Shown here piece after piece: positions 26,947-64,000 of a stretch of DNA of 64,000 nucleotides. How positions within the stretch are numbered: the stretch's first letter is position 1; each line of letters starts with the position of its first letter. The notes below the pieces were generated by a model that worked only from the letters and a program-made list of their open reading frames with translations, made no database searches and was not told the DNA's origin. Source of the DNA: a phage; NCBI GenBank assembly GCA_025677605.1, contig GCA_025677605.1_4110.1; one strand, 5' to 3'. The position numbers were made by a program, and so were the translations under genes.

Positions 26947-26948
26947 TT

Positions 26949-31349: not shown

Positions 31350-31378
31350 ATCATACCCCATATGAGGCATGATGTCAA
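31350..31378 (-). promoter_or_regulatory. sigma70-type promoter of the family B operon
   Basis: -35 TTGACA 31373..31378; 17 bp; -10 TATGAT 31350..31355. Confidence 0.6.
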
Positions 31379-31381
31379 GTG

Positions 31382-32203
31382 TTAAAGCTTACCCATGTAA
31401 GTAAGTTCTTCCATAATAAATTTTAGTCCAGCTTCGTCGGTGAGTTCAGTACAGCCATCTTTGATTTTAACATGTTGCATATGATTAATTAAATTAGTAT
31501 ACTTCAACATATCCTCAAGGTCAGCAGCTTCAACTGAGTTTTCAAACAGTACAGCTATGATTTCTTCAGAATCGAACCTATTGTTATATTTGAATAGTTC
31601 ACGACGATTTGTTAAATTATGAGTAACTCCGTATTTGTAAACAACTTCACTATTGTGGATGAACTTATTGACATAGAAATAAGCTTCATGCGAACCATTG
31701 AATGTCTTACGCTTATAACAATCTGGGCAGTTTGTTATATTACCATTTTCAACTATATGACACATTTTTCGTTCAAAAATACAACCACATTTACATTCAA
31801 GATTGCATGTGTAATTACCATATACTCCATGTCTATTTGATTTACCTGACGGAATATACCCATTACATCTTATATCATTTCCCTGAAATTCTAGAATGCA
31901 ATTAGCAACGTAAACTATATCTTTATCAGTATATCGTATACGAGAAATATTATTAGCTTTCATCAAATAATTAGCTGACCTTGTAAGTAAAACACCATTA
32001 TATTCATAAAGGATTGGTGTTTTATTTCCTATATATTCCGATGATTTTTTGATAGCATATCCTAAGATTTTTATCGATGTGTGTTTATTTGAAATTTCAT
32101 TTGTATAAAATTTCGGTGTTTTAATATTATGAGTGTTGTAAATTACATTTATATTTTCAGCCAACATATAATTGAATGTACGACCGCCGCGTATAATTTG
32201 CAT
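31382..32203 (-). CDS. Putative nuclease: Cys-cluster plus GIY-YIG-superfamily (T5orf172-like) C-terminal domain
   Basis: 273 aa. CNLECKCGC..C..CPDC cluster. The C-terminus AYFYVNKF..VYKYGVTHNLTNRR..AADLEDML..DGCTE fits the Y..Y-KxGxT..R...E pattern of T5orf172/GIY-YIG-like domains. Confidence 0.45.
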   Translation of the reverse strand: MQIIRGGRTFNYMLAENINVIYNTHNIKTPKFYTNEISNKHTSIKILGYAIKKSSEYIGNKTPILYEYNGVLLTRSANYLMKANNISRIRYTDKDIVYVANCILEFQGNDIRCNGYIPSGKSNRHGVYGNYTCNLECKCGCIFERKMCHIVENGNITNCPDCYKRKTFNGSHEAYFYVNKFIHNSEVVYKYGVTHNLTNRRELFKYNNRFDSEEIIAVLFENSVEAADLEDMLKYTNLINHMQHVKIKDGCTELTDEAGLKFIMEELTYMGKL

Positions 32204-32360
32204 ATTAAGTCTCCCTGATAATTGTAATTATTATATCACACATATATTTTTTATCCCATCTATGAACACATTCACACGCGACTAAGCATTAATAGCCTTT
32301 ACTTTGATAATAATATAATAACAGTCCGAAACTATTTCATACGTTATAGTGTACTGGTTA

Positions 32361-32393
32361 AAATAAAAAACGATGCATTTTTAAAATGCACCG
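32361..32393 (-). terminator. Rho-independent terminator ending the early-like block
   Basis: Minus-strand hairpin GGUGCAU..AUGCAUC followed by UUUUUUAUUU. Confidence 0.6.
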
Positions 32394-51534: not shown

Positions 51535-52044
51535 TTAAGAGTACTTTTTAAAATATTTTATTATTGTTTCCTTTGTAACTCCAAATTTTCTACCCAATGC
51601 AGTAGCACCATAAACGCGATCCCCTGGCTTATAATGTGTTATAATGTATTGTGTATCGTCGGCGGTCAAACGTGCCTTATCGTTATCATATCCCGTTAAA
51701 CGTGGTTTAACTAATCCAGAATCAAACGCATGTTTAACATTTTCGCTATTGGTTGCCCATTCCAACGCGGTGTAATGATTGTTCGCCTTTCCCTTTAAAT
51801 GATTAACTTGAACTATCTTATAGTGAGTTTTTGCAGCCCATGCGATTTGTTCCGCAGTAGGCGGTGATAGATAGTTATTAGCAACCAATCTATGAACAAA
51901 ATGATCCCCATCGTTTAACGATACTCTTTGATAACCTTTTTCGGTTATACGTGGTTTAAGATTGGTTGTAGTGCCAATCTTTCTAACATCCCCATACTCG
52001 CTAACTTCATATAAATTATTTTCTTTTAGTACCTTCCATTGCAT
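51535..52044 (-). CDS. HNH homing endonuclease
   Basis: 169 aa. N-terminal YEVSEYGDVR and GYQRVSL..HRLVA (NUMOD4/HNH_3-type). VNHLKGKANNHYTALEWATNSEN is the HNH core. C-terminal HTH-like GRKFGVTKETIIKY. Confidence 0.8.
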   Translation of the reverse strand: MQWKVLKENNLYEVSEYGDVRKIGTTTNLKPRITEKGYQRVSLNDGDHFVHRLVANNYLSPPTAEQIAWAAKTHYKIVQVNHLKGKANNHYTALEWATNSENVKHAFDSGLVKPRLTGYDNDKARLTADDTQYIITHYKPGDRVYGATALGRKFGVTKETIIKYFKKYS

Positions 52045-52118
52045 ACACGATCCCCTGATGTAACATTTATTTGATACTATTATATCATAAAAATATGTTC
52101 CATCTCATAAAATAGTAC

Positions 52119-52146
52119 TTGCATTCTGTACGGCATAGCGTATAAT
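52119..52146 (+). promoter_or_regulatory. Plus-strand sigma70-type promoter followed by the R core
   Basis: -35 TTGCAT 52119..52124; 16 bp; -10 TATAAT 52141..52146; downstream GCC-loop-GGC then CTAACCCACAGGGTGCCGAG. Confidence 0.5.
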
Positions 52147-52334
52147 TACTACATAAGCCGGAAACAAGGCACTAACCCACAGGGTGCCGAGATCCGCCCA
52201 AAATTCATATAATTTAAAAAGGATACACTCCCGCACCCTAGCAGGTCAAAGCACTTTCTCAGTACTGAATCATAGTACCATAGTACGCCCCAGGATGGCA
52301 AGCAAATTAATTAAAACTTTTTACACTTAGGCTA

Positions 52335-52363
52335 TTGCTTTTATAATTCAGTACTGCTATAAT
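52335..52363 (+). promoter_or_regulatory. Plus-strand sigma70-type promoter followed by the R core
   Basis: -35 TTGCTT 52335..52340; 17 bp; -10 TATAAT 52358..52363; downstream AGTC-loop-GACT then CTAGCCCACCGGGTGCATAG. Confidence 0.5.
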
Positions 52364-52459
52364 TATTTCATCAAGTCGAGAAAGACTCTAGCCCACCGGG
52401 TGCATAGTTACGCCCAAAATTCAGTACTAGATTATTTTTAAAAATATTCATCCAGGCGG

Positions 52460-52540
52460 TTGACATACCCCGCTAAAACTGGGATAATGTTTCCAGATTC
52501 AGAAAAATCTAACTCCAGATACTGCGGGGAAACCATCCCC
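52460..52540 (+). promoter_or_regulatory. Plus-strand sigma70-type promoter plus leader hairpin firing into the repeat array
   Basis: -35 TTGACA 52460..52465; 17 bp; -10 GATAAT 52483..52488; hairpin GGGGA-AACCA-TCCCC 52526..52540; no ORF follows. Confidence 0.55.
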
Positions 52541-52587
52541 ACGCGGTAGGGGAACTATTGGAAAAAACAAAATAAAAATTTTGATTT

Positions 52588-52765
52588 AGCCGTCTATACA
52601 TCCAGACGTGTAACCATCTAGCCATCTAGCCGTCCAAACGTCTAGCAGTACAGCCATCTAGAAATCTAGCCATCTAGAAATCTAGCCATCCAGCCGTCTA
52701 GAGGGATAGCCATCTTTACTTCCAGACTTCTGGAGGGCTAGACATCTCTACGTCCAAAATCCACC
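52588..52765. repeat. Iteron-like array of about 15-18 degenerate 8-9-bp units (consensus ATCTAGCC / GTCTAGAN)
   Basis: For example CCATCTAGCCATCTAGCCGTCCAAACGTCTAGCAG...CCATCTAGAAATCTAGCCATCTAGAAATCTAGCCATCCAGCCGTCTAGAG. Confidence 0.75.
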
Positions 52766-53118
52766 CAGGGTTACTACGCCCAAAATCCGTCAGTACTATA
52801 CCATAGATCTATCTTTAAGAAGGGAGTATTCAGTACTGCCATCATAGTCCTCACTATGTTACCCTAGGAGGATGAAGACTATCATGTAGTACTGAATACT
52901 TTTAAGGGGAATATCATCACATTGCGTGATGCATTATATATTAGATTAATATCAGTACTGCTACCATTCTGTTAATAACAGTACTGTTTATATTACGAAA
53001 AAAGAGGTTGTCAAAGATGAACCACTGCATAGGAGGATTCAATCTCTTCTGTACTGTCTCACGACAGGAGGGTTAAGGCTCTGAATTGTTTGCGGCAATT
53101 CATCACTCTATGTAGAAC

Positions 53119-53146
53119 ATTATACAGTACTGAATCATAATGTCAA
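53119..53146 (-). promoter_or_regulatory. sigma70-type promoter with no downstream ORF
   Basis: -35 TTGACA 53141..53146; 16 bp; -10 TATAAT 53119..53124; more than 1 kb downstream lacks any credible ORF. Confidence 0.5.
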
Positions 53147-53591
53147 TAGATTTCTTCCATTATTCAGTACTGAAAACATATCTTCTGTATCTCTTCAAAA
53201 CTCATTATATCCCACTAATCCTATATGTCCCAATGTAAATTTCAACTTTCGAAGATCCAACTTTTATTTCATAGGTACTCCAAAATTTTTACGATCCAGA
53301 TTTACGATGGAGTACTAACCAACTTTTTGCTGGAGCCTCAAGGGGTATTCGGAATTTTCCCCAATGGGTATTCGGGATTTTTGACGAAGGGTAAATTGAA
53401 CTTTTTTGAATAGGTGATTGGGAGTTTTCAGTACTGGTCATTCCGTGATTACTTTTGATTGGAAATGATTTGTTTTGCAATTGTTCAGTACTGTAAAATT
53501 ATGTAAATTTTGGGCGACTTCATTTGCCTACTTAGTGGGATATCAGTACTGAATCATTCCTGCACTCTAGTACTCAATACTCTTCACTACA

Positions 53592-53651
53592 ATGATTATA
53601 AATGATTACTTAAATGTTTATATATGATTACTTATGACTACCTATGATTAC
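53592..53651. repeat. Five phased copies of ATGAT/CTAC/T
   Basis: Copies start at 53592, 53602, 53624, 53634 and 53644 (10-bp register within each group). Confidence 0.7.
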
Positions 53652-53691
53652 GGGGTTTAGCCTGGGGAGAATCCTAGTGATCGCATTTGTC

Positions 53692-53731
53692 CAGGCTGAA
53701 TTTTAACATATGCAACATATGTTAAAGCCTG
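53692..53731. repeat. Large palindrome/hairpin
   Basis: Perfect 11-bp arms TTTAACATATG 53702..53712 and CATATGTTAAA 53716..53726, extended by CAGGCT / AGCCTG; TGTATAAT immediately follows on the plus strand. Confidence 0.75.
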
Positions 53732-53776
53732 TATAATGCTTGCACTACGGAGCTTCCCCTAGCTATATGTGTTTAA

Positions 53777-53974
53777 TTACTTCCTATATATAAGCATTAA
53801 GATATAGTAGTACTGATTGTACTGTACATTCTCTAGAACAGGAGAAGGGTCTATTGCTATATTAGTACATTTATTAAATTCATATCGAGTCATTGGTAGA
53901 GGGATTAGAGCGTTAATCCATACTTGTTCATTCTCTTTGAGTTTACTTATATAGAATTCTTTATGGTCATTCAT
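53777..53974 (-). CDS. Family C tiny protein
   Basis: Track ORF 53777..54085 trimmed to MNDHKEFY (abuts the upstream stop); ends LMLIYRK. Confidence 0.55.
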   Translation of the reverse strand: MNDHKEFYISKLKENEQVWINALIPLPMTRYEFNKCTNIAIDPSPVLENVQYNQYYYILMLIYRK

Positions 53975-53975
53975 A

Positions 53976-54167
53976 TTAGTGTCTGTATATAAGTAATAGT
54001 AAGAATACGTACTGCACCTGTTCATCTTTAGTATTGAGTACTGTACGTATTGCGTCCTTAAACAAGAATATAGAACTTGGGTCATGGGAATTTAAAGGGA
54101 TTACGGGGACGGCATCTTTGTAGTTCTCTTTAACAAATTGTTTATAGTATTCTTTATAATTATCCAT
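53976..54167 (-). CDS. Family C tiny protein
   Basis: 63 aa; MDNYKEYY...LLLLIYRH. Confidence 0.6.
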   Translation of the reverse strand: MDNYKEYYKQFVKENYKDAVPVIPLNSHDPSSIFLFKDAIRTVLNTKDEQVQYVFLLLLIYRH

Positions 54168-54360
54168 AGATATATACTAGCAACATTAGGTTAGAGTATA
54201 GTGCTTTAGTGTCATCTTGTTCTAGAGCTTCAATTGAGTTCGTTGTAGCTTTCCTAAAGCCCATTTTTGCGTATGCACTTTTTGGATTAACGGGGGCGGC
54301 GGCTTCGCACCAGATTCTTTCGGTGCTTGATAGTTTACTCATATAGAATTCTTTATACAT
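54160..54360 (-). CDS. Family C tiny protein
   Basis: 66 aa; MYKEFY...LMLLVYIYG. Confidence 0.6.
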   Translation of the reverse strand: MYKEFYMSKLSSTERIWCEAAAPVNPKSAYAKMGFRKATTNSIEALEQDDTKALYSNLMLLVYIYG

Positions 54361-54361
54361 A

Positions 54362-54544
54362 TTAGTACCTGAATATTAGCATTGTTATGTAGTACAGCAT
54401 ATATGGATTGTCATCGTATATTAGGGTGTACTTAGTACATTGTTGGAACATTATCTTTGCGTGATCTTTTATTCCTATTGGTTCTGTTGGTACAAGGTGT
54501 TGGAGATGCATTGGGAGATGATCTTTATAAAATTCTTTATACAT
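54362..54544 (-). CDS. Family C tiny protein
   Basis: 60 aa; MYKEFY...ITMLIFRY. Confidence 0.6.
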   Translation of the reverse strand: MYKEFYKDHLPMHLQHLVPTEPIGIKDHAKIMFQQCTKYTLIYDDNPYMLYYITMLIFRY

Positions 54545-54552
54545 ATTAGTCC

Positions 54553-54741
54553 TTAGTACTGGAACGCGAGATACAGAGTGTGGTACAGTTGCACTTGAGA
54601 ATTGTTTTCATTAAGTACTTGTTCAGTACATGTGCGGAAGTAATCAGCTTCGTATATACAGTTAATATCGCGAGGTTCATCTTCTAATAGATTGCCTTGT
54701 AGAAACTTTGGTAGTTCTTTTATGTAGTATTCTTTATGCAT
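54553..54741 (-). CDS. Family C tiny protein
   Basis: 62 aa; MHKEYY...TLYLAFQY. Confidence 0.6.
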   Translation of the reverse strand: MHKEYYIKELPKFLQGNLLEDEPRDINCIYEADYFRTCTEQVLNENNSQVQLYHTLYLAFQY

Positions 54742-54750
54742 ATGATTTCC

Positions 54751-54939
54751 TTAGTACACGAATGCGAGGTACAGGGTGTGGTACAGTACTCGATGATAGC
54801 TATCATAATCTTGTATACATGCTTTAGTGCACATAGTAAAGTACTTTTTATCGTTTTGTGCATTGATACCGCGAGGTTTATCTAATAGATTAGTTATGAG
54901 GTACATTGGGAAATATTTTGTGTAGTATTCTTTGTGCAT
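54751..54939 (-). CDS. Family C tiny protein
   Basis: 62 aa; MHKEYY...TLYLAFVY. Confidence 0.6.
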   Translation of the reverse strand: MHKEYYTKYFPMYLITNLLDKPRGINAQNDKKYFTMCTKACIQDYDSYHRVLYHTLYLAFVY

Positions 54940-54940
54940 A

Positions 54941-55123
54941 TTAGTACCTGTATATAAGTGTTAGTACATTGTACAAGTTATAGATATCATCTTCATTTAT
55001 TGCAGATTCTGTTTGATATCGGTAGAATATAGTTTGGCTTTTATCTTTGAAATCTACAGGTTTTTGGGGAATAAGTTTTTGGAGATCTATTGTAAGTTTA
55101 CTTACGTAGTATTCTTTATACAT
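54941..55123 (-). CDS. Family C tiny protein
   Basis: Track ORF 54941..55186 trimmed to MYKEYYVSKL; ends VLTLIYRY. Confidence 0.55.
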   Translation of the reverse strand: MYKEYYVSKLTIDLQKLIPQKPVDFKDKSQTIFYRYQTESAINEDDIYNLYNVLTLIYRY

Positions 55124-55787
55124 AGTTTGTAATATAAGTAATGAGGTGATGAATTTTCTTATCAGTACTGATAAGTTCCTGTACATGTTTTGTTAGTTTG
55201 TACGCGTTTTTGTACAGTACAGGATTATCGATTACAGTACTGTACATGAATAGATCTTCTTCCTGTAGTTCTTTGTGTTCTAGTTCTTTGAGGAATTCTA
55301 CAATTGATTTAGTTTCTTCTGTACGTTGCTGTTGGAAGAAATGCATGTTATCGTGTATTTCTTCTGAACCCATACTGTATATGCCACCCATTTGGAATTG
55401 TGCTGTATTGACATCGTGGGAGGTGTTACAATTCCCGAAGAAGTATGTATTCCCGAAGTATAGCATTAAAGTGCACGGGGTATTATCCAACTGCATATGG
55501 ATGATGAAGGATGCGTTCTTTAGTACCTTCATGCTCGTATTAGTACTCAATACTTTTAAATCAGTATTATAGATATTCATATAATGAACAGCTATATTAT
55601 TTTTCTTCATGTACAATTCAAGGTTCTTTGATACGTTAACTCCATTTGTACTGGTTTTTTTACTTTTCTTTAGGTTCTTTAGTACATTAGGGTGATAAGT
55701 ATATGCATTAGTGGTAGATTCAGCCTGGATTGATTGCAGGTACTTGAAGTGCTGTAGGTATCGTTTACTTTGTGGATTGAGTTTCAT
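55116..55787 (-). CDS. Family A-like outlier within the family C array
   Basis: 223 aa; LQEEDLFMYSTVIDN at the motif position. Confidence 0.55.
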   Translation of the reverse strand: MKLNPQSKRYLQHFKYLQSIQAESTTNAYTYHPNVLKNLKKSKKTSTNGVNVSKNLELYMKKNNIAVHYMNIYNTDLKVLSTNTSMKVLKNASFIIHMQLDNTPCTLMLYFGNTYFFGNCNTSHDVNTAQFQMGGIYSMGSEEIHDNMHFFQQQRTEETKSIVEFLKELEHKELQEEDLFMYSTVIDNPVLYKNAYKLTKHVQELISTDKKIHHLITYITNYV

Positions 55788-55815
55788 TTTAGTCTCCTTA
55801 AATTGCTTATACTGC

Positions 55816-55995
55816 TTATACTGTTACAAGCGAGATTATTTCTCTGTATGGGTTATTTTTTGTCAGGACGTGATGAATGCAGCTATTGAGATTAATAGTT
55901 TTAGTACTTTTTGTTCCTATGTTGTAGTACTTCACGAAGGTGTCGTACATGAAACGATCCTTAGTACTGAGATTATCGGTGTAGTACTCTAGCAT
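55816..55995 (-). CDS. Family C tiny protein (59 aa, not in ORF track)
   Basis: Hand translation MLEYYTDNLSTKDRFMYDTF...NPYREIISLVTV. Confidence 0.5.
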   Translation of the reverse strand: MLEYYTDNLSTKDRFMYDTFVKYYNIGTKSTKTINLNSCIHHVLTKNNPYREIISLVTV

Positions 55996-56005
55996 AGTTT
56001 ATTCC

Positions 56006-56185
56006 TTATATAGAGATTAGTTTCAGTACTTCTCTGTACGTGTACTTTTCGTTTTGTGCTTCTACTGTACATGATAGCAGGTATCGTTTTTTATCTCTTT
56101 TGTTCCCGACTGTGTAGTACCTTTGGAATTGATTATAGATGTATCTATCTTTGTTCTGGAGTTTATAGATATAGAATTCTTGCAT
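56006..56185 (-). CDS. Family C tiny protein (59 aa, not in ORF track)
   Basis: Hand translation MQEFYIYKLQNKDRYIYNQF...KYTYREVLKLISI. Confidence 0.5.
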   Translation of the reverse strand: MQEFYIYKLQNKDRYIYNQFQRYYTVGNKRDKKRYLLSCTVEAQNEKYTYREVLKLISI

Positions 56186-56193
56186 AGTGTACC

Positions 56194-56373
56194 TTAGATA
56201 GAAATTAGTTTCAGTACTTCATTATATGTGAACATTTCGTCCTGTGCCAATTTAGTACAATTCAGGAGTAATTTTCTTTGTTTTCTTTGCGAACTACAAT
56301 GATAGCTCATTGAGAAGTAATTGAAGCCGTATCTATCTTCTGGGTAAATTACGCTTAGGTAGTATTCTAGCAT
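56194..56373 (-). CDS. Family C tiny protein (59 aa, not in ORF track)
   Basis: Hand translation MLEYYLSVIYPEDRYGFNYF...MFTYNEVLKLISI. Confidence 0.5.
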   Translation of the reverse strand: MLEYYLSVIYPEDRYGFNYFSMSYHCSSQRKQRKLLLNCTKLAQDEMFTYNEVLKLISI

Positions 56374-56381
56374 TGTATTCT

Positions 56382-56567
56382 CTACATTTCAATAAGTTTA
56401 AGTACTGCTCTGTACGTGTACTTAGTTGTTAGTACTTCTTTTATAGCAGTACAGAAGTAATGTTGTTTGTCTCTTATACTGCCGCGTTTGTAGTACCATA
56501 CATGGGAGTTGTGGCTGTACTTGTCTCTGTCGGATAGTTGTTGGTAATAGTAGCTTATATGATTCAT
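56382..56567 (-). CDS. Family C tiny protein
   Basis: 61 aa; ...KYTYRAVLKLIEM. Confidence 0.6.
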   Translation of the reverse strand: MNHISYYYQQLSDRDKYSHNSHVWYYKRGSIRDKQHYFCTAIKEVLTTKYTYRAVLKLIEM

Positions 56568-56776
56568 TGTAATGTAATTAGCCTTACTATATTAAAGTAC
56601 TCGGTCCCTGTTGCACCTTGTAGAATATTACGCACGACATGTTTGTGGTGCAGGATGATTGCTGAAGGTGCGGTTCTTTTAAGTTTTTTAAAAGTACTGA
56701 ATTCTTGTTTAAGTATGAACTGTACATCTTTAGGGAGAATATCTATGTAGTACTGATGAATGTTTGTAATTTTCAT
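56564..56776 (-). CDS. Family C tiny protein (divergent)
   Basis: 70 aa; MKITNIHQYY...NIVRLITLQ. Confidence 0.55.
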   Translation of the reverse strand: MKITNIHQYYIDILPKDVQFILKQEFSTFKKLKRTAPSAIILHHKHVVRNILQGATGTEYFNIVRLITLQ

Positions 56777-56787
56777 ATAGTACCTTT

Positions 56788-56979
56788 TTAGAACTTAAAG
56801 ATGAGGTACATGATAGATAGGTACTTAGTTGAAGTAAATGGTTGTTCTATTGCATAACGTGTCTCCAACCTGAAATCGTAATTATAAAAGGGACTATTCT
56901 TTCTCATAGGTTCTTGAGGGAATGAGTCCCTGTATTGTTCGTGTAGTTTACTACAGTAGAAATCTTTATGATTATTCAT
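56788..56979 (-). CDS. Family C tiny protein
   Basis: 63 aa; MNNHKDFY...IMYLIFKF. Confidence 0.6.
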   Translation of the reverse strand: MNNHKDFYCSKLHEQYRDSFPQEPMRKNSPFYNYDFRLETRYAIEQPFTSTKYLSIMYLIFKF

Positions 56980-57181
56980 AGAAGTATATTAGTCCGATTA
57001 AACTTGAGTACTGCATATTTTTGTTATTGCATTCAATAGCTTCTAGAGTACTACGTATACAATTATTAAAGCAATTCCTTGTGTTGGGTGTGTCTATACT
57101 TACAGGTGGTACACTCCTTAGAAACATTTGTTCTTCGTTGCTGAGGTATTTGGTGTAGAATTCTTTATGTTCAGTATTCAT
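56972..57181 (-). CDS. Family C tiny protein
   Basis: 69 aa; MNTEHKEFY...LIGLIYFYE. Confidence 0.6.
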   Translation of the reverse strand: MNTEHKEFYTKYLSNEEQMFLRSVPPVSIDTPNTRNCFNNCIRSTLEAIECNNKNMQYSSLIGLIYFYE

Positions 57182-57182
57182 A

Positions 57183-57383
57183 TTAGTACTCCAATAGTAG
57201 TGTTAAGATGAAATAGTACTGCATACTTTCGTTACCTTCTATTGCATTCCAGATGAGGTTATTCCTGTTTGAGTTCAGGAGTCCTGGTATGCGTTTAGCA
57301 TTTTTCAGTACTGTTTTTTGGTTCTTCATTGCATCTTGTAGCCCAGGGTGCAATGCATTGATGTAGTACGGGTTAATGTTCAT
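57183..57383 (-). CDS. Family C tiny protein
   Basis: 66 aa; MNINPYY...ILTLLLEY. Confidence 0.6.
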   Translation of the reverse strand: MNINPYYINALHPGLQDAMKNQKTVLKNAKRIPGLLNSNRNNLIWNAIEGNESMQYYFILTLLLEY

Positions 57384-57607
57384 ATAGCCACTAGTACTAA
57401 GATGTTTAAAAATTGTTTACGGGTATCCCCTAATAGTGTATTGTGTACAATGCTCACAGTAAGGGTATTCAGTGCACTACCAAGCATAAGGTTACACCCT
57501 GTGCTCTTATGATTTTTTAGTTCAATTAGCCACGATTGGTCAGAGAGAACCTTTGCGTACTCTAGTTCATTTAGTTCATTGATGTAGTACTTTAGAGCAT
57601 ATGGCAT
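57380..57607 (-). CDS. Family C tiny protein (first gene of operon)
   Basis: 75 aa; MPYALKYY...NILVLVAI; AAGGAG SD. Confidence 0.6.
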   Translation of the reverse strand: MPYALKYYINELNELEYAKVLSDQSWLIELKNHKSTGCNLMLGSALNTLTVSIVHNTLLGDTRKQFLNILVLVAI

Positions 57608-57632
57608 GTACGATTCTCCTTAGATTTCTCAT

Positions 57633-57661
57633 ATAGTACATCAGTACTGAAAGGGTGTCAA
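57633..57661 (-). promoter_or_regulatory. sigma70-type promoter of the family C operon
   Basis: -35 TTGACA 57656..57661; 17 bp; -10 TACTAT 57633..57638. Confidence 0.6.
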
Positions 57662-57709: not shown

Positions 57710-58606
57710 ATGTTACCTTTTGTTAGAATGTTTAAGTACGGGAATGTAGGTCCATTACCTGGCCCAAATGGTGGAGTACGAACACCATTTACTACAACAC
57801 CCGTACCTTCAGCACGAAATAACTTTGGTTATACGTATGATGCGGAAAGTAATATTGCTTATATATTTGGTGGTATACAGAATGCGGTGCAGACGGATAA
57901 TCAGTTATGGAGTTTTAATTTAACTACAAGAACGTGGTCACAATTAGCCAATGCACCTGTATCTACATTTGGTAGTGCGTTATGTGCTTATCAGGGAAAA
58001 ATATATTTGTTTGGTGGTTCAGGTAATAGTAGTAATAATTTTTATGTATATAATATAAGTACAAATACATGGATTCTGAACACTAACAGTATTGGGAAGC
58101 CTAGTCAACTGGCGTATAGTAAGATGATTACTGCTGGGGATAAGATATATTTGTGGGGTTCGCCTACTAATAATTCGTTATACAGTTATACTCCAAGTAC
58201 TAATACATGGTCATCATTAGGTACAAGTGATGGAACAAATAACAATGGAGGTGGTGATATGTGTACGGATGGTACTTACATATATATTACTGGTCAAGGT
58301 ACTAGTACTGCACAAAAATATCATATACAAAGTGCGGTGTGGTCTAACATAGCACCAGTTGGTGGTAATAACCCTAGTAAAATATGTTACAGTACATATG
58401 ATAAAAATATATATGCAGTGTCGTATGGTGCATTAAATTTATTGAGATACGATGCAGAAGAAGACATATGGATTCCCTTAGCGGTTAATACTACTTTGAG
58501 TAGTAGTACTGGTGCGTTATTTGGTTCTAAGAATAGTGCTGAGATATTTTATGTACTTGGTTTTGACAATGGCACTCGTGTTAATACGCAGTATGTTTTT
58601 AAATAA
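57710..58606 (+). CDS. Kelch-repeat beta-propeller protein with conserved MLPFVRM N-terminus
   Basis: Track ORF trimmed to MLPFVRMFKYGN (AAAGGAGG SD). 5-6 Kelch-like units, e.g. IYIFGG..LWSFNLTTRTW, KIYLFGG..YVYNISTNTW, KIYLWG..YSYTPSTNTW. Confidence 0.75.
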   Translation: MLPFVRMFKYGNVGPLPGPNGGVRTPFTTTPVPSARNNFGYTYDAESNIAYIFGGIQNAVQTDNQLWSFNLTTRTWSQLANAPVSTFGSALCAYQGKIYLFGGSGNSSNNFYVYNISTNTWILNTNSIGKPSQLAYSKMITAGDKIYLWGSPTNNSLYSYTPSTNTWSSLGTSDGTNNNGGGDMCTDGTYIYITGQGTSTAQKYHIQSAVWSNIAPVGGNNPSKICYSTYDKNIYAVSYGALNLLRYDAEEDIWIPLAVNTTLSSSTGALFGSKNSAEIFYVLGFDNGTRVNTQYVFK

Positions 58607-58618
58607 TTTGGAGGAATT

Positions 58619-59761
58619 ATGTTACCTTTTGTTAGAATGTTAGAGTACGGGAATATTGCACCAGAACCAAAACCTCTATTTAAAAATAGATTACAAGCAA
58701 ATTATAATACTCGTTTTTATTTGCATGTTAATGGTGACTTGTACTGGTATGGTTCATCTTCATTTGGACAAGGTGGTAATGGTTCATTACAATCATCCAC
58801 CGTATGGACCCGTGTGAATAATAATATTGAACGTTACTGGGGTGGTGTTCTTGGTTCCATTGCCATTAAGAATGATGGAACTATTTGGTTCACAGGTGCT
58901 AGTATAGTAATGCCACAAATCGGAACAAATACAAATGGGGTTTGGATTGATGTAACCCAGTACTTCACTGATTTTGGTGTCAGTGCTGATGATATTGATG
59001 GTATTGCTGTTGGGCAGAATTTGCGTGTATTTTTAAAAAATGGAAAATGGTTCTACTGTGGTGCTGGCGAAGGTGGTGTATTTGGTAACGCGTCAACAGC
59101 TAATGTCACATCGTTCAGATACAGCACTATAGAAAATGTTAAAAGTTATGGCTGTTCTTTGCTCAGTACTGGGTTAGTACTTGATGATGGCTCCTATTGG
59201 TATGCAGGAAATACTGTTGCTCCTGGTAGTACAAAAACATCAAATATATTAAGTTTTACAAAAGACAATACGATCACCAATGCTATACAAGCTGTAAATA
59301 CATACCGTACTTCATATATATTTCTTAATGATGGTTCAGTGAAGGTTGCTTCACCAAATGCATATGGTCAAGCTGGTGTAGGTACAGTATCAGCAGTACC
59401 AATGAGTACATTAATTCCCAATTTATCATTCCAAGGTGAAATAGAGTTGGTGGGTGGTTTATCCAACAACGAAGGGAATGGATGTGTTGTTAAAAATAAT
59501 AATAAGTTATATACTTGTGGTCGAAATACCTATGGTGCATGTGGTGTTAATCAAACATCCGAAAATATACTAACTTTCACCGAAATGGTTCTTGATGCAT
59601 TAGAAGGAAGACGAATTTCAGGCTTCGTAATTGATAATTTCTATTCAATGATAATTGATGAAAATAACAATTTGTATATGAGTGGTTTACCTGAACTTGG
59701 AAATGTTCCAGCCGTTAGAGTACCAACCAGAGTTCCTGATTCACTTCTACCGTGGAAATAA
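58619..59761 (+). CDS. RCC1-like repeat beta-propeller protein with MLPFVRM N-terminus
   Basis: 380 aa; GGAGG SD. Repeats such as LYWYGSSSFGQGGNG, WFYCGAGEGGVFGN, SPNAYGQAGVG, LYTCGRNTYGACGVN. Confidence 0.7.
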   Translation: MLPFVRMLEYGNIAPEPKPLFKNRLQANYNTRFYLHVNGDLYWYGSSSFGQGGNGSLQSSTVWTRVNNNIERYWGGVLGSIAIKNDGTIWFTGASIVMPQIGTNTNGVWIDVTQYFTDFGVSADDIDGIAVGQNLRVFLKNGKWFYCGAGEGGVFGNASTANVTSFRYSTIENVKSYGCSLLSTGLVLDDGSYWYAGNTVAPGSTKTSNILSFTKDNTITNAIQAVNTYRTSYIFLNDGSVKVASPNAYGQAGVGTVSAVPMSTLIPNLSFQGEIELVGGLSNNEGNGCVVKNNNKLYTCGRNTYGACGVNQTSENILTFTEMVLDALEGRRISGFVIDNFYSMIIDENNNLYMSGLPELGNVPAVRVPTRVPDSLLPWK

Positions 59762-59768
59762 TATAATA

Positions 59769-59797
59769 GCCAGTACTCTGTACTGGCTTTTCTTATT
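59769..59797 (+). terminator. Rho-independent terminator
   Basis: GCCAGTAC-TCT-GTACTGGC followed by TTTTCTTATTT. Confidence 0.75.
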
Positions 59798-59833
59798 TGT
59801 ATTAAATATAGTATAATGAATAAAGGAGGAATT
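59798..59833 (+). promoter_or_regulatory. Conserved cassette leader
   Basis: TATAAT 59812..59817; AAAGGAGG SD. Confidence 0.5.
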
Positions 59834-60943
59834 ATGTTACCTTTTGTTAGAATGTTAGAGTATGGGAATATTGTACCCGGTCCTAAAAATATAATTAAAG
59901 TTGGTGCTTCTACACAAGGTCAATTCTTATTGACTGATTCACATGATTTATATTACATAGGTAGAAATCAAGGTGGTGAATCTGGAAATGGTAATAACAA
60001 CACGGTATCTTCATGGATATTAGTAAGTTCAGATGTTTCTAATTTTTTCGTGGGTGGTCGTACACTTGTTATTATTAAAAATGATAATACGATATGGACA
60101 TCGGGTGAAACGTACTGGTTCTCATCTTCTACAACTACTTCTTACAGTACTATATTAGTTGAAAGGACTAATTGGTTTACCAATGCTATACCAGTGAGTG
60201 AAATTGCTAATATTGTATGTACAAATGGTTTAATATTTGTACTTAGCACTAGTTCAGTACTCTATGGTGCAGGAGATAATGGATATCGTGGTTCTTTAGG
60301 TATTGGCTCATCATCGATTTACACATTAACTCAATGTGCTACTAACGTGCGTAAAGTAATGACTAATGCAAATGATAGTATGTATATTACATTAGATAAT
60401 AAGCTATATAGTTCTGGATGGAATAGCAGTGGGCAGCATGGTACAGGGGACCAAACACAAATTAACACTTGGGGATTACGTAGTTCTGGTGTAATCGATG
60501 CAGCGATTGGTGGTAATGCATTTAATTACTATAATGGTACATCATATTTCGTATGTGGTCAAACTCCAAACTTTCTTAGTTCAGGTACGACTACATTCCG
60601 TGCAGTTCCTGTAAGTACTTTGCCTAATAGTTCTCCGTTGTTTATGACGAATTCACCTGCATTAAATACTGCTACACAAATGGTAATTACTAGTACATAT
60701 CAGAAGGGTGTTGGGGCGAACCGTGGTTTGGGATTAAACAATTCTCAAACTGGTGCTATATATAGTGCTACAAATTTACAATTACCCGTTGAAGTTAGTG
60801 AGATTAGGGATGTTCTTTTTAGTGATGGTTTGACTTCAATATTAACCAAAGATGGAGATGTATATAGTACTGGAACGTATTACGCCATTCCTGGTGCAAG
60901 CGAGGATGTTGCAGTCTTTACTAAAATTGATTTACCAAAATAA
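59834..60943 (+). CDS. RCC1-like repeat beta-propeller protein with MLPFVRM N-terminus
   Basis: Track ORF trimmed to MLPFVRMLEYGN. Repeats LYYIGRNQGGESGNG, LYGAGDNGYRGSLGIG, LYSSGWNSSGQHGTGD. Confidence 0.7.
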   Translation: MLPFVRMLEYGNIVPGPKNIIKVGASTQGQFLLTDSHDLYYIGRNQGGESGNGNNNTVSSWILVSSDVSNFFVGGRTLVIIKNDNTIWTSGETYWFSSSTTTSYSTILVERTNWFTNAIPVSEIANIVCTNGLIFVLSTSSVLYGAGDNGYRGSLGIGSSSIYTLTQCATNVRKVMTNANDSMYITLDNKLYSSGWNSSGQHGTGDQTQINTWGLRSSGVIDAAIGGNAFNYYNGTSYFVCGQTPNFLSSGTTTFRAVPVSTLPNSSPLFMTNSPALNTATQMVITSTYQKGVGANRGLGLNNSQTGAIYSATNLQLPVEVSEIRDVLFSDGLTSILTKDGDVYSTGTYYAIPGASEDVAVFTKIDLPK

Positions 60944-60949
60944 CATAAT

Positions 60950-60977
60950 GCCAGTACTTGATACTGGCTTTCTTATT
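60950..60977 (+). terminator. Rho-independent terminator
   Basis: GCCAGTA-CTTGA-TACTGGC followed by TTTCTTATTT. Confidence 0.75.
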
Positions 60978-61014
60978 TGTATTAAATATAGTATAATGAA
61001 TAAAGGAGGAATAT
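60978..61014 (+). promoter_or_regulatory. Conserved cassette leader
   Basis: TATAAT 60992..60997; AAAGGAGG SD. Confidence 0.5.
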
Positions 61015-62194
61015 ATGTTACCTTTTGTTAGATTGTTTGATTATGGGAATGTTGCCCCTATTAAAGATACTGTTGTTAAAATTAATAGTGATGAAAATTC
61101 AATAAGCGTATTATACAGTGACGGGTCATTATATATGCGTGGACGGAAACCAATCAGCAAAAATGGGAGTTACTGGTTCATCTTTTTTAGATAGATGGGT
61201 TTTATGTCCTTATAGTGTTGATGATTTCTGGAGTTCTTTATATTGTACTATAATTAGAACAAAACAAGGGGAATTGTACTATAGTGGAACTAACTCAGTT
61301 TTTGGTATATCATCTTCTGTTTCAACATGGACTCGTTGTGAATCATATTTTGGATCTATCTCGGCGAGTTCTATAAAAGATATAAAAATAACATCAACAA
61401 CCAGTACTAACAATTCTATGCTAATACTCACAAGTGACGGTCAGTTATATGGTATAGGCATGAATGGTGCAAGTGAATTGGGTACAGCAACTGCACCAAT
61501 TACATCTCCACTCTTAATTGACACTAGTGTAACTGCAATTGCATCTAGCGAAATGAGCAGAAACTTTCACTATATAAAAGATGGTATATATTATCGTTGT
61601 GGTGAGAATACTTTTTATCAATTAGGGACAGGTGATAATAATCCAATTACGACTTTTACTGCATTGAATCTTGCAAGTTCTCAAGTAATTGCAGTACAAG
61701 CTACACGATGGGTAACACGTTTGATTGTTCAAAGTAGTACATCTGCTTTGTCTTTAATGGCGGCTGGTTGGAACACACAGTTGACTATAGGTGGTTCTGA
61801 AAATACTGGTATAATAAGGTCATCATTTACTACAAATCCCTATACCGATATAACAGCAAATTCATTCGATAAACTTTCACCAGTATCCTATGTTAATGCA
61901 ATAAAATCCAGTACTAACATTATTAATACGAATGGTAAGGGATATAATTCTAATGGTGCTGGTTTAGGCCGCAACGCATTCTCTGGGAATTATGGTTCAA
62001 TATTACCAATAGAATTCTTTGATGATAGTGTTGACTTATCACATGTTGAGTGGTTTGGTACGATTGGTAATGGTTCAGTATCGGTAGTTAGTATAGGTGA
62101 GGATTTATACTGGACTGGAAACCCTGGGTATTTTACTGAACAAGGTGAGACTGGATATATATATAAATTCAAAAAGTGCATTCCTTTTAGATAA
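61015..62194 (+). pseudogene. Frameshifted RCC1-like beta-propeller paralog
   Basis: MLPFVRLFDYGN...LYSDGSLYMRG is in frame 1 (stop at 61192..61194). The homologous continuation GNQSAKMGVTG... is in the +1 frame (track ORF 61118..62194). One extra nucleotide near 61144. Confidence 0.6.
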
Positions 62195-62202
62195 TCACAA
62201 TA

Positions 62203-62229
62203 CCAGTACTTGATACTGGCTTTTCTTTT
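62203..62229 (+). terminator. Rho-independent terminator
   Basis: CCAGTA-CTTGA-TACTGG followed by CTTTTCTTTTTT. Confidence 0.7.
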
Positions 62230-62265
62230 TTGATTAAATATAGTATAATGAATAAAGGAGGAAAT
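62230..62265 (+). promoter_or_regulatory. Conserved cassette leader
   Basis: TATAAT 62244..62249; AAAGGAGG SD. Confidence 0.5.
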
Positions 62266-63456
62266 ATGTTACCTTTTGTTAGAATGTTTGATTACGGGAA
62301 TATAACACCAGTCCCTATTCAAATTAAGAAAATATCACCAACTGATTTAGATGTTGTCGTTCTTTATACGGATGGTCAACTATACGCACGTGGAAATAAT
62401 AGTTTTGGGAAGTTTGGTAGAGGAAATAGTAATGCAGTAAAGTCATGGACCTTAATTAGAGAAAATGTTAAAGATTTCTGGGTGTCACAAGGAACTTTGT
62501 TAGTACAAGATAATGACTTAAATTATTTTTATTGTGGATACGGTGATCATGTTGGTTTACCAACTAGTACTACAACATTTTTAAGTTATAACCAATATAT
62601 TGAAAATTTATACACACAAAGTTCAAGTACTTCAATTAAACAGATGTATGCAGGCACTACGTGGTTTACTTTCTTAATGGATAATAATACAATATGGAGT
62701 ACTGGTTGGAGTGGGGCTAGACAATTCGCTGATGGTACTGGAAAAACTCAACAAATAACAGATGGATCATTTGTAAAAGCTGTCACGCCTAATGTTGATA
62801 TTGCACAAATACAGTCAACAAATAACTGTGTAATGTTTTTTGATACACAAAATAATTTATATATTGGTGGTGGTACGTCAGGTATAAGTACCAGTACCAC
62901 ATGGACACCATTTAATGAATATACTTTATATAAACCAAGTACAACATACACAAAAACGTTACAATACACTGGATGCTCAAGTGGTGCAGTCAGTGCTTTG
63001 GTTGAGAATCCAAGTACTGGTGCACGTCAGTTTCTAGTTGGTGGTTTAGCGAGTAATGGTGCATGGGGTAACAATACCACAACCAGTTCGGCACTTGCTG
63101 TATTAGGGAGCAATAGTACGACATTACCAACTGGAACTTTGTATTCAATTCATACAGGATACCCAACACAATCTAGTATACTAGTTACGAGTACTGGTGT
63201 ATATGCAACTGGTTTAAATGCGAGTAGTTATGCTGGTTCGTTGGGTGTTGGTTCTAATGTTACTATTGGTAGATTTACTATATGTCCAATGCCAGCAGAA
63301 ATATCATATTCTATGTATGATAAAATAAAAATATATCGCGGTTCGTATCGTACTTTTCTAACTGCTGATATGAAAAATATATATTCAACCGGAACGTATG
63401 ATGATGGTGGTCCTAGTACAAATAGATATGTTCTGGATACACCTAGACAATTGTAA
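62266..63456 (+). CDS. RCC1-like repeat beta-propeller protein with MLPFVRM N-terminus
   Basis: Track ORF trimmed to MLPFVRMFDYGN. Repeats LYARGNNSFGKFGRGN, IWSTGWSGARQFADGTG, GGLASNGAWGN. Confidence 0.65.
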   Translation: MLPFVRMFDYGNITPVPIQIKKISPTDLDVVVLYTDGQLYARGNNSFGKFGRGNSNAVKSWTLIRENVKDFWVSQGTLLVQDNDLNYFYCGYGDHVGLPTSTTTFLSYNQYIENLYTQSSSTSIKQMYAGTTWFTFLMDNNTIWSTGWSGARQFADGTGKTQQITDGSFVKAVTPNVDIAQIQSTNNCVMFFDTQNNLYIGGGTSGISTSTTWTPFNEYTLYKPSTTYTKTLQYTGCSSGAVSALVENPSTGARQFLVGGLASNGAWGNNTTTSSALAVLGSNSTTLPTGTLYSIHTGYPTQSSILVTSTGVYATGLNASSYAGSLGVGSNVTIGRFTICPMPAEISYSMYDKIKIYRGSYRTFLTADMKNIYSTGTYDDGGPSTNRYVLDTPRQL

Positions 63457-63463
63457 TAATTTC

Positions 63464-63491
63464 GCCAGTACTTGATACTGGCTTTTCTTTT
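63464..63491 (+). terminator. Rho-independent terminator
   Basis: GCCAGTA-CTTGA-TACTGGC followed by TTTTCTTTTTT. Confidence 0.75.
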
Positions 63492-63527
63492 TTGATTAAA
63501 TATAGTATAATGAATAAAGGAGGAAAT
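63492..63527 (+). promoter_or_regulatory. Conserved cassette leader
   Basis: TATAAT 63506..63511; AAAGGAGG SD. Confidence 0.5.
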
Positions 63528-64000
63528 ATGTTACCTTTTGTAAGAATGTTGGATTATGGAAATAAAGTTTTACCATATATTCCCAATTTTGTTAAATTAG
63601 TTACACCATCGTGTGGTTATTCATATACATGTACAATGATGCTTGATAAAAATGGTTCAATATGGGCTATAGGTTTTCAGAATGGTGGAATTTTTGGTTT
63701 AGGTCATACTAATCCAGTAACTGAATGGACAAAAATATATAGCAATGTTAAAGATTTTTGGTGCAGTACAATGAACGCTTTTTGTCTAATACGCACAAAT
63801 GATGATAGATTCTTTTATAGTGGTTTAGATAAATGGCTGGGTAATAATACAACCAATAATATAACAACATTCACAGAATGTACAAGCTATTTTACACAAT
63901 TTGGAATTTCAAGAATTAAAGATATATACGTGGGTTATGATTATGCTTTGATTTTAGGTACAGATAATAGTTTATATTTGTTAGGTGATAATACTGGTTA
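63528..64000 (+). CDS. Beta-propeller paralog with MLPFVRM N-terminus (partial; runs off the window)
   Basis: Hand translation MLPFVRMLDYGNKVLPYIPNF...IWAIGFQNGGIFGLGHTN... is open to the window end; not in the track because no stop is reached. Confidence 0.65.
   Translation, partial: MLPFVRMLDYGNKVLPYIPNFVKLVTPSCGYSYTCTMMLDKNGSIWAIGFQNGGIFGLGHTNPVTEWTKIYSNVKDFWCSTMNAFCLIRTNDDRFFYSGLDKWLGNNTTNNITTFTECTSYFTQFGISRIKDIYVGYDYALILGTDNSLYLLGDNTG

Follow-up and report, generated by a model that had tools for sequence, protein, structure and literature searches.

A promoter-headed string of small paralogous genes beside the terminal repeat of an Asteriusvirus jumbo phage

Introduction

Large phages spend much of their genome on small orphan genes, for which annotation is poor and dedicated studies are very rare. 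Do the short, tightly packed reading frames at 53777-57607 of the phage DNA analysed here encode proteins, are these proteins related to one another, and what could so many of them do? The window, i.e. the whole stretch of 64,000 nucleotides that was analysed, had been described in the original prediction as carrying at this place a lineage-specific expansion of tiny genes, arranged in one promoter-headed, tightly packed string. This description is supported by the results given below. The locus is a clean and well-delimited example of its kind, with one promoter, 16-22 homologous tiny proteins, a confidently predicted scaffold and a clear variable surface.

Results

Source phage and position of the array

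The window is DNA of an Asteriusvirus (PBECO4/121Q-like) jumbo coliphage. The array is the final operon of the unique genome and is located ~245 bp from a direct terminal repeat (DTR) of ~21 kb. The start of the DTR-equivalent, to which no strand is assigned, is predicted at 53480..53540, from where it extends to ~32,280. For phage fEgEco12 the termini have been confirmed and the DTR is 20,993 bp long (PMC13070987); by blastn, its position 54 corresponds to position 53,480 of the window and its position 20,902 to 32,369. The GC-content step seen at ~32 kb in the window agrees with this DTR limit. In fEgEco12, 303 bp separate the end of the array (353,438) from the DTR start (353,741). The DTR contains small genes and repeated strong promoters of the form TTGACA...CAGTACTG-TATAAT. 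In the related phage CBB, RpoD-like promoters are clustered over short hypothetical ORFs, which its authors suspected to be early host-takeover genes (PMC5259590).

The small ORFs are protein-coding genes

Sixteen genes of 59-75 aa and one gene of 223 aa (gA) were identified on the minus strand of 53777-57607. All 16 small ORFs of the original prediction were recovered, including the three of 59 aa. Two listed ORFs of 81 and 102 aa were restarted at internal ATGs that fit the family, giving 54941-55123 (60 aa) and 53777-53974 (65 aa). The predicted N-terminal (K-E-F/Y-Y, L-E-Y-Y) and C-terminal (LIYRY, LAFQY, LIFKF, VLKLISI) motifs are present.

Since the ORFs are very short, sparsely represented in public annotation (3/17 in Sharanji, 5/17 in PBECO4) and show an atypical C>G skew on the coding strand, they could be taken for frames open by chance or for artefacts of an AT-rich composition. 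To control for composition, 1000 dinucleotide-preserving shuffles of the array stretch were carried out. ORFs of at least 59 aa on the coding strand cover 97.8% of the stretch (n=17), whereas in the shuffled control the mean coverage is 2.3% (max 17.6%) and the mean ORF count 0.4 (max 3). The pooled dN/dS of the array genes against six related phages is 0.35-0.44 and is significantly below 1 in every comparison (Fisher p 2e-13 to 5e-4). Significant HMM and profile matches and confident structure models, described below, likewise contradict a compositional origin of the shared termini. The reading as chance frames is refuted, and we regard it as next to impossible. Thus, from the shuffle coverage, the purifying selection and the AlphaFold2 confidence taken together, the array ORFs are genuine protein-coding genes.

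Three subgroups of small genes

The small proteins had been described as one family. Pairwise BLAST and HMMs split them into three subgroups, S1 (9 genes), S2 (4) and S3 (3). S1 and S3 align over their full length in HHalign (probability 91.7%, P=7.7e-7, 63 aligned columns) and are, by this profile evidence, homologous. S1 and S2 give a collinear alignment of lower probability (31%, P=5e-4) with the same predicted helix order; S2 against S3 is not significant, and the sole match of the S2 model in Foldseek is an S2 relative, not an S1 model. S2 is thus weakly linked to the other subgroups, and the notion of one family holds for S1 and S3, not as a uniform group of 16.

The string begins with two S3 genes, g01 (57380..57607; 75 aa; 103-108 bits with the S3 HMM), which has an ortholog (OG01) in 7/7 genomes and a dN/dS of 0.29-0.39, and g02 (57183..57383; 66 aa), with a 4-nt overlap between its start and the g01 stop. 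The latter is also matched by the S1 HMM (E=0.003), and jackhmmer joins it to S1. All nine S1 genes match PHROG 11711 (phrog_11711) end to end, with E values of 2e-7 to 2e-27. The first two of these, g03 (56972..57181; 69 aa; E=1.2e-13, also found with the S1 HMM) and g04 (56788..56979; 63 aa; E=2e-15), overlap by 8 nt and are followed by the remaining S3 gene, g05 (56564..56776; 70 aa; S3 HMM). The S2 genes are g06 (56382..56567; 61 aa), assigned from its ORF and HMM match, and three genes of 59 aa: g07 (56194..56373), whose orthogroup is restricted to the window and phage A4, g08 (56006..56185) and g09 (55816..55995; dN/dS 0.15-0.25). The distal S1 block comprises g10 (54941..55123; 60 aa; E=4e-12), which is one of the restarted ORFs and overlaps gA by 8 nt, g11 (54751..54939; 62 aa; E=6e-26), g12 (54553..54741; 62 aa; E=2e-27), g13 (54362..54544; 60 aa; E=1e-23), g14 (54160..54360; 66 aa; E=4e-12), g15 (53976..54167; 63 aa; E=2e-7), with a dN/dS of ~1 in some comparisons that rest on small counts, and the last gene of the operon, g16 (53777..53974; 65 aa; E=2e-20), the other restarted ORF. 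All are on the minus strand.

PHROG 11711 has no assigned function; the S2 and S3 genes, which have no PHROG match at E <=0.01, are outside its coverage, and it does not capture the tandem operon organisation. None of the 17 proteins reaches a Pfam-A gathering threshold. The best hit, g05 to HigB_toxin, was rejected, as it scores 15.6 bits and the cut-off is 27. The searches by fold and by sequence, including those of the PDB, returned no similarity to a characterised protein of host takeover or anti-defence.

An unrelated gene within the array

The 223-aa gene gA (55116..55787, minus strand) is flanked, in all genomes examined, by the S2 block on one side and by the distal S1 block on the other. 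It matches phrog_29152, which has no assigned function (E=3e-135), its dN/dS is 0.31-0.44, and no Pfam or PDB match and no paralog within the window were found for it. It had been called family A-like, after a set of 38 paralogs at 38-26964. No relatedness to that family was detectable by jackhmmer: a search seeded with gA recovers gA alone, and none of the searches started from each ORF of 100 aa or more picks it up. By sequence comparison, gA appears to be a gene unrelated to the small array genes among which it is embedded.

Promoter, ribosome-binding sites and downstream hairpin

The single sigma70-type promoter that had been placed at the head of the string is present at 57633..57661 (minus strand), with a -35 TTGACA (57661-57656), a 17-nt spacer and a -10 TACTAT (57638-57633), i.e. 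10/12 consensus matches in a consensus scan; its activity and timing are as yet predicted ones. The spacer contains the palindrome CAGTACTG (57642-57649). The promoter is near-invariant across seven Asteriusvirus genomes and its flanks vary. In the array interior, no further promoter of the type that characterises this phage was found. A strong Shine-Dalgarno sequence, AAGGAGAA (57614..57621, minus strand), lies 6 nt upstream of the g01 ATG and is conserved in the seven-genome alignment.

Spacing between the genes had been given as 0-10 nt. This is roughly right and overlooks the overlaps: the gaps between cistrons measure -8 to +11 nt, except for +28 nt before gA, which has its own Shine-Dalgarno AAGGAG. 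In all genomes the gaps peak at -8, -4, +1 and +8 to +10. The Arg codon of the C-terminal R-Y is AGG in 26/33 cases, as compared with 42/256 elsewhere (p=8e-13). The conservation of R-Y at the C-terminus is thus due in part to a constraint on the nucleotides: AGG forms the Shine-Dalgarno of the next gene, and in many genes the penultimate codon doubles as the ribosome-binding site of the following one. Given the tight packing and these AGG sites, translation is probably coupled along the string, and the array would constitute a single polycistronic operon of 17 cistrons and ~3.9 kb.

A long conserved stem-loop (53650..53765, minus strand; MFE -47.5 kcal/mol, z=-5.6) is located directly 3' of the last stop codon. 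In eight genomes, its 3' half and the ~70 nt that follow show nearly 100% identity. The stem-loop could serve as a terminator, an RNA-processing site or a terminus-related signal.

A predicted four-helix scaffold with a variable surface

One S1 and one S2 protein were modelled with AlphaFold2. The model of g12 (pLDDT 90.8, pTM 0.75) has helices at residues 3-7, 12-19, 29-44 and 48-60, and that of g08 (pLDDT 83.9) at 2-7, 11-26, 29-44 and 49-58. Both proteins are predicted to be small four-helix bundles. The conserved scaffold consists of the N-terminal K-E-Y-Y helix, F35/C38/T39/I43 on helix 3 and the L-x-L-I-Y-R-Y C-terminal helix. By column entropy, hypervariability is found in helix 2 and in the loop after it. 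The dN/dS is 0.27-0.35 for the scaffold versus 0.61-0.80 for helix 2 and the loop. As dN/dS exceeds 1 in no region of the array proteins, an arms race is not demonstrated.

The pI of the proteins varies from 4.7 to 10, several being basic (8.8-10) and many neutral or acidic, and they contain 0-3 Cys. Their composition is skewed (Tyr 10.6%, Gly 1.8%). No transmembrane segment and no signal sequence or lipobox was detected: the longest apolar run is 11 residues, the N-termini are polar (M-x-K-E-Y-Y) and GRAVY is mostly negative. Membrane-acting small phage proteins such as holins, superinfection-exclusion proteins and spanins were ruled out by the lack of a transmembrane segment. In phage phAPEC6, the array genes gp540c-gp548c are absent from the 62-protein virion list obtained by ESI-MS/MS, which includes the neighbouring RCC1-like gp549 and gp551 (PMC7247149). 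This absence is weak evidence, as virion proteomics often misses very small proteins. We take the array proteins to be cytoplasmic and probably non-structural.

Distribution and evolution of the family

The family is confined to the genus Asteriusvirus (35/50,697 phage records; 27 clusters in a set of 1.84 billion protein representatives). The seven genomes compared carry 16-22 copies each and together hold ~26 orthogroups, ~10 of them universal and collinear. No within-genome pair exceeds 59% amino-acid identity and there are no recent duplicates. The claimed expansion is therefore genuine and lineage-specific, but old. The array evolves by slow birth, death and shuffling of cassettes. Since most array genes are unannotated in the genus, any gene count or pangenome analysis of these phages is biased.

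The dN/dS of the array lies above that of the neighbouring genes (0.08-0.31), and the array is under purifying but relaxed selection. Old paralogs in largely collinear order fit slow drift as well as adaptive turnover. The array could accordingly be largely dispensable baggage, i.e. old tandem ORFan duplicates that drift under weak constraint and have no specific individual functions; the dN/dS near 1 of some genes, the patchy presence and the skewed composition agree with this. Phage genomes are, in general, under packaging-size pressure, which does not favour the retention of such baggage. Moreover, selection is significant in every comparison, scaffold positions and reading frames are kept in all genomes, the universal orthogroups stay collinear, and the promoter and ribosome-binding sites are conserved. 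We consider this explanation rather unlikely. If it held and the proteins had no specific role, the locus would be another orphan paralog cluster.

Discussion

The explanation that we prefer, with a probability of roughly one in two, is that the array is an early, sigma70-driven operon, the products of which form a repertoire binding different host factors or anti-phage defence proteins. Host RNA polymerase would transcribe the operon early in infection; we infer this timing from the location of the array at the edge of a terminal repeat in which promoters of the same type abound. The literature searched yielded no transcriptome of an Asteriusvirus. Each small protein would then neutralise or redirect a different host factor or defence protein, and the variable membership between phage strains would mirror the variable hosts that they meet.

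The target could instead be the phage itself. The ~35 small zinc ribbons of Bacillus phage G have been proposed to be transcription factors or DNA-binding proteins (PMC7824862), and the array proteins might similarly act as DNA-, RNA- or RNA-polymerase-binding regulators tuning phage transcription or DNA handling. The basic members, and a very over-represented palindrome in the window that is a possible operator, would suit such a role. However, a neutral or acidic pI is common among the members, no signature of nucleic-acid binding, be it a helix-turn-helix, a zinc ribbon or another, was detected in the array proteins, and 26 divergent, patchily present orthogroups would be superfluous for a conserved phage target. 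Regulation of this kind appears improbable. It is equally hard to believe that the small proteins together build up a single hetero-oligomer, in which helical hairpins would be stacked into a solenoid or scaffold in the infected cell. Tight coupling of the cistrons would supply matched amounts, and the helices conserved at both termini could serve as shared interfaces, but a fixed complex is hard to reconcile with a copy number and membership that differ between closely related phages (16-22 copies, only ~10/26 orthogroups universal).

A stricter form of the host-directed repertoire is offered tentatively, as a minority view. The array would be an encoded library of ~60-residue 'mini-binders' built on one four-helix scaffold, with helix 2 and the loop as the hypervariable surface. 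Each orthogroup would have its own protein to neutralise, from the defence systems or other host proteins of E. coli or Salmonella, and cassettes would be swapped between phages. If true, two dozen new specificities for anti-defence or host takeover would be gained, all on a single scaffold not known before. The natural presence/absence variation among ~35 sequenced phages of standard laboratory E. coli provides a practical start for deletion and host-range screens that look for new activities in host takeover or anti-defence.

Comparison with known systems

As an organisation, the array is typical of large phages and not a new kind of system. The zinc-ribbon expansion of phage G (~35 copies) resembles it in that a jumbo phage carries dozens of copies of one very small domain (PMC7824862); the array proteins differ in being predicted four-helix bundles without a Cys4 site, and lineage and host are different. 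The host-takeover module of Bacillus phage SPO1 has 24 small genes in a 13-kb terminal redundancy, and those of its small products that have been characterised bind to host factors and inactivate them (RNAP, HU, cell division) (PMC10531801). Its genes are described as unrelated to each other, whereas the array members are mutual paralogs (PMC10531801). In both, small and mostly orphan genes are densely clustered in one direction at the genome end of a large myovirus that has long DTRs. The SPO1 genes are inside the repeat and the array is ~245-300 bp outside it; there is no sequence or fold similarity, and for the array early timing and host shut-off are hypothetical. The SPO1 module has many early promoters and the array one.

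Anti-CRISPR and anti-defence clusters are runs of small (50-150 aa), fast-evolving, strain-variable genes with a strong early promoter; their members are usually mutually unrelated and are often followed by a helix-turn-helix regulator (aca). The array is likewise a run of small genes with membership varying between close relatives. In contrast, its members are paralogs, no helix-turn-helix gene is present among the cistrons, and the proteins have no similarity to solved anti-defence proteins. In the poxvirus-type 'gene accordion', a host-interaction gene is present in tandem, recent, near-identical copies, the number of which depends on the strain. The array shares the tandem copies and the strain-dependent number. 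As the closest pair within a genome is only 59% identical, however, the array is old and diversified, unlike the accordion.

Coding capacity and selection

The array is an unbroken string of small ORFs on the minus strand (53777-57607, window ORF list), comprising 16 genes of 59-75 aa (g01-g16, numbered in the order of transcription) and one gene of 223 aa (gA, 55116-55787). For two of the genes, an internal ATG consistent with the family was taken as the start. ORFs of at least 59 aa (n=17) cover 97.8% of the array on the coding strand, against a mean coverage of 2.3% and a mean count of 0.4 in 1000 dinucleotide-preserving shuffles of array DNA. The string is thus real, far beyond chance. Both the three 59-aa genes (ORF list) and the N- and C-terminal motifs of the proteins were found as described in the original prediction.

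To assess selection, window genes were paired with their reciprocal-best orthologs in six genomes. The pooled dN/dS of the array was 0.35-0.44, significantly below 1 (Fisher p 2e-13 to 5e-4, six genomes), and neighbouring genes had lower values of 0.08-0.31. AlphaFold2 models were obtained for two sequence subgroups of the small proteins. The S1 model (70-sequence alignment; pLDDT 90.8, pTM 0.75) has helices at 3-7, 12-19, 29-44 and 48-60, and the S2 model (16-sequence alignment; pLDDT 83.9) at 2-7, 11-26, 29-44 and 49-58. The array ORFs are real proteins, under selection and foldable. Selection and the structure models rule out a non-coding or compositional reading of the array, including the possibility, raised with the original prediction, that the shared termini are artefacts of composition.

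The conserved columns are K3, E4, Y5, Y6, L10, P23, F35, C38, T39 and I43, followed by L52, Y53, L56, L58, I59, Y60 and Y62; the hypervariable part spans helix 2, the loop and the start of helix 3. By region, dN/dS was 0.27-0.35 in the scaffold and 0.61-0.80 in helix 2 plus loop, with no value above 1 in any region that would indicate positive selection. Values above those of the neighbours would fit dispensable duplicates that are simply drifting, values significantly below 1 speak against them, and this reading is held unlikely. The array proteins have polar N-termini, a longest apolar run of 11 residues and a pI of 4.7-10. Their Tyr-rich (10.6%), Gly-poor (1.8%) composition accounts for the excess of C over G on the coding strand of the array, unlike that of other minus-strand genes.

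Subgroups of the small proteins and the central gene

All-against-all BLAST and HMMs divided the small proteins into three subgroups: S1 (g03, g04, g10-g16; K-E-F/Y-Y ... L-I-Y-R-Y), S2 (g06-g09; L-E-Y-Y ... V-L-K-L-I-S-I) and S3 (g01, g02, g05; Y-Y-I ... L-x-L). Each of the nine S1 genes matches phrog_11711 (function unknown), and S2 and S3 genes have no PHROG match. None of the 17 array proteins has a Pfam domain at threshold; weak matches to HigB_toxin, DUF1272 and cutinase fell below it and were discarded. Once homologs were included, HHalign matched S1 to S3 end to end (probability 92%, P=8e-7), and S1 and S2 are collinear but weakly similar (P=5e-4, probability 31%). Similarity between S2 and S3 was not significant by HHalign. 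The identical order of predicted helices supports a common origin of S2 with S1. Since a Foldseek search with the S2 model did not retrieve S1 models, membership of S2 in the same superfamily is treated as probable. S1 and S3 are homologous, S2 is weakly linked to S1, and the single family proposed originally is corrected to three subgroups. Searching the whole window by HMM gave no additional members.

The central gene gA matches phrog_29152 (function unknown), has no paralog within the window and gave an empty PDB sequence search. It had been called family A-like, after the 38-member paralog family at 38-26964. In a jackhmmer search that family did not recruit gA, and the assignment is not supported, as no link between the two was detected. 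Family A itself comprises 38 paralogs of 110-216 aa over ~27 kb (38-26,964, minus strand; jackhmmer single-linkage), and the members sampled match different PHROGs, all of unknown function.

Operon organization and promoter

The promoter predicted at 57661-57633 is present, with the arrangement TTGACA-17-TACTAT, then AAGGAGAA, then the first ATG. It is near-invariant in seven genomes, whereas its flanks vary, and its spacer holds the palindrome CAGTACTG (57642-57649). Inside the array there is no second promoter of the type characteristic of this phage. Generic promoter-like sites number 20, compared with 27.5 in shuffles; as this total is below expectation, the internal sigma70-like matches at 56250-56221 and 56392-56364, in a gene that only this phage and phage A4 carry, were taken as chance and rejected.

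Gaps between cistrons range from -8 to +11 nt, with +28 nt ahead of gA, and gap sizes in the seven genomes peak at -8, -4, +1 and +8 to +10, a pattern expected for translational coupling. Arg uses the AGG codon in 26 of 33 cases when it falls among the last three residues, compared with 42 of 256 elsewhere (p=8e-13). In the recurrent gene ending ...AGG TAC TAA TG, the AGG lies ~6-8 nt ahead of the next ATG, so the C-terminal R-Y is partly a ribosome-binding-site constraint. The C-terminus, offered earlier as a plain family signature, is one only with this qualification.

Directly 3' of the array (~53,540-53,776, minus strand) lies a long stem-loop (MFE -47.5 kcal/mol, z=-5.6), in the last ~300 nt ahead of the terminal-repeat boundary. 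About 110 nt of this zone are near 100% identical in eight genomes, compared with only ~84% for the flanking genes; the apical hairpin varies between genomes. The stem-loop may act as a terminator, as a processing site or as a terminase/terminus signal.

Position at the edge of the terminal repeat

The termini of phage fEgEco12 have been confirmed experimentally, with direct terminal repeats of 20,993 bp (PMC13070987). The fEgEco12 record has the end of the array (g596-g613) at 353,438 and the start of the right repeat at 353,741; the two repeat copies are identical. Mapping from fEgEco12 places the equivalent of the repeat at ~32,280-53,530 in the window, in agreement with a GC step at 32 kb. 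These coordinates and the mapping place the array as the final transcription unit of the unique part of the genome, read toward the right repeat and ending ~245 bp short of it. The window is contiguous through array, repeat and left unique region, which indicates either an assembly collapsed into a circle or a junction within a concatemer.

GC content is 0.37-0.40 in the repeat-equivalent, versus 0.31-0.34. Its first ~1.7 kb (52,045-53,530) has no ORF of at least 100 aa and carries ten palindrome copies. Several strong promoters in the repeat share the arrangement TTGACA-N8-CAGTACTG-TATAAT, with a GGGGAGAA...TTCTCCCC hairpin after it. Window-wide the palindrome occurs in 58 exact copies, among them those at 57642-57649, 53125, 53165, 43877, 40616, 35897 and 33601, and TCAGTACTGA, with up to one mismatch allowed, is found 53 times where 2.7 are expected. 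Only a subset of palindrome copies is part of such a promoter; others precede a -35 box by ~20 nt or fall within coding sequence. The palindrome may serve a regulator of early promoters as its operator.

Two endonuclease-like genes on the minus strand, an HNH type at 51,535-52,044 (phrog_59, E=9e-27) and another at 31,382-32,203 (phrog_681), are located inside the repeat-equivalent or at its edges and may be homing endonucleases. About 1 kb past the other edge of the repeat-equivalent begins a second, unrelated tandem family of 25 tiny proteins of 67-96 aa, on the minus strand at 26,952-31,333 plus 15,719-16,149, 24,976-25,436 and 26,374-26,604. These have a conserved G-T-N-Y-Q-E motif and 4-nt overlaps; profile comparison of the 27-31 kb family with S1, S2 and S3 was not significant. 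Rfam and tRNA scans of the window were empty.

The other side of the array adjoins RCC1-like propeller genes in divergent orientation. In phAPEC6 two orthologs of these are virion proteins, and array genes are absent from the virion proteome (PMC7247149). The plus-strand region 57,710-64,000 opens with a 298-aa beta-propeller-like gene, which probably starts at ATG 57710 after AGGAGG rather than at TTG 57674, and continues with RCC1-like paralogs. Lacking a sigma70 consensus ahead of them, the propeller genes are probably late.

Distribution, evolution and annotation

Megablast assigns the region to Asteriusvirus, the PBECO4/121Q-like jumbo coliphages with genomes of ~350-380 kb. Escherichia phage A4 is its nearest match (97% identity), and BF17, vB_Ec-M-J, PBECO4, phAPEC6 and Sharanji are 82-87% identical to the region. 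A word-indexed search of 5.8 billion proteins gave 64 clusters for S1, 14 for S2 and 12 for S3, all of 39-98 aa and without Pfam domains, from ~350-kb phage genomes or short metagenome contigs. When HMMER was run exhaustively over 1.84 billion representatives with the S1 profile, 27 clusters only (41-69 aa) came up, among them neither fusions nor distant relatives. By tblastn the family is present in 35 of 50,697 phage records, every one of them a phage of Escherichia or Salmonella with a genome of 320-384 kb. On these searches the family is restricted to the genus and never domain-fused.

Across seven genomes the number of small genes is 16-22, and the layout S3 S3 S1 (S1) (S3), S2 x3-6, gA, S1 x7-12 is kept. 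Clustering at 55% identity yields 26 orthogroups, ~10 of them universal; all shared orthogroups but one (proximal, distal or both) are collinear. The most similar pair of array genes within a genome is 59% identical. The array is thus old and diversified, shaped by gain, loss and shuffling of cassettes and not by recent amplification. With copy number and membership varying, it is quite improbable that the small proteins form a hetero-oligomeric assembly.

Public annotation of the array is incomplete. Small genes are annotated in ~3 of 17 cases in Sharanji, 5 of 17 in PBECO4, 8 of 18 in phAPEC6, 11 of 22 in BF17 and 15 of 17 in A4, as hypothetical proteins throughout. The vB_Ec-M-J record also leaves many unannotated, and the PBECO4 entries gp281 and gp285 look truncated relative to the family.

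Possible function and comparison with known systems

Foldseek searches against viral models returned only the family's own members, and a PDB sequence search with the S1 profile was empty. Literature searches found neither an Asteriusvirus transcriptome nor a published description of this array. A promoter of host type, a location bordering the early-type terminal repeat and absence from the virion, together with a scaffold bearing a variable surface, relaxed selection and strain-variable membership, suggest that the array proteins may be early, cytoplasmic small binders of host factors or defence systems, transcribed by the host polymerase. We give this reading a probability of about 0.5, and its structural part is much stronger than its functional part. 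Small proteins directed instead at regulation of the phage itself seem a distinctly poor prospect. The original prediction stands as an observation and largely as an interpretation, apart from the single family, the plain C-terminal signature and the kinship of gA. The main interest of the array is as a candidate locus for host-takeover or anti-defence functions that lends itself to experiment.

The array is a previously undescribed case of orphan small-gene expansions in early regions of large phages. Phage CBB, a relative, has a concentration of RpoD-like promoters over short hypothetical ORFs, and its authors suspected that these ORFs serve early host takeover (PMC5259590). The nearest organizational analogue is the host-takeover module of SPO1, with 24 small genes in the terminal redundancy (PMC10531801). 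The SPO1 module lies inside the repeat and its genes are non-paralogous, whereas the array lies outside the repeat and its genes are paralogous; the likeness would therefore be one of resemblance, not membership.
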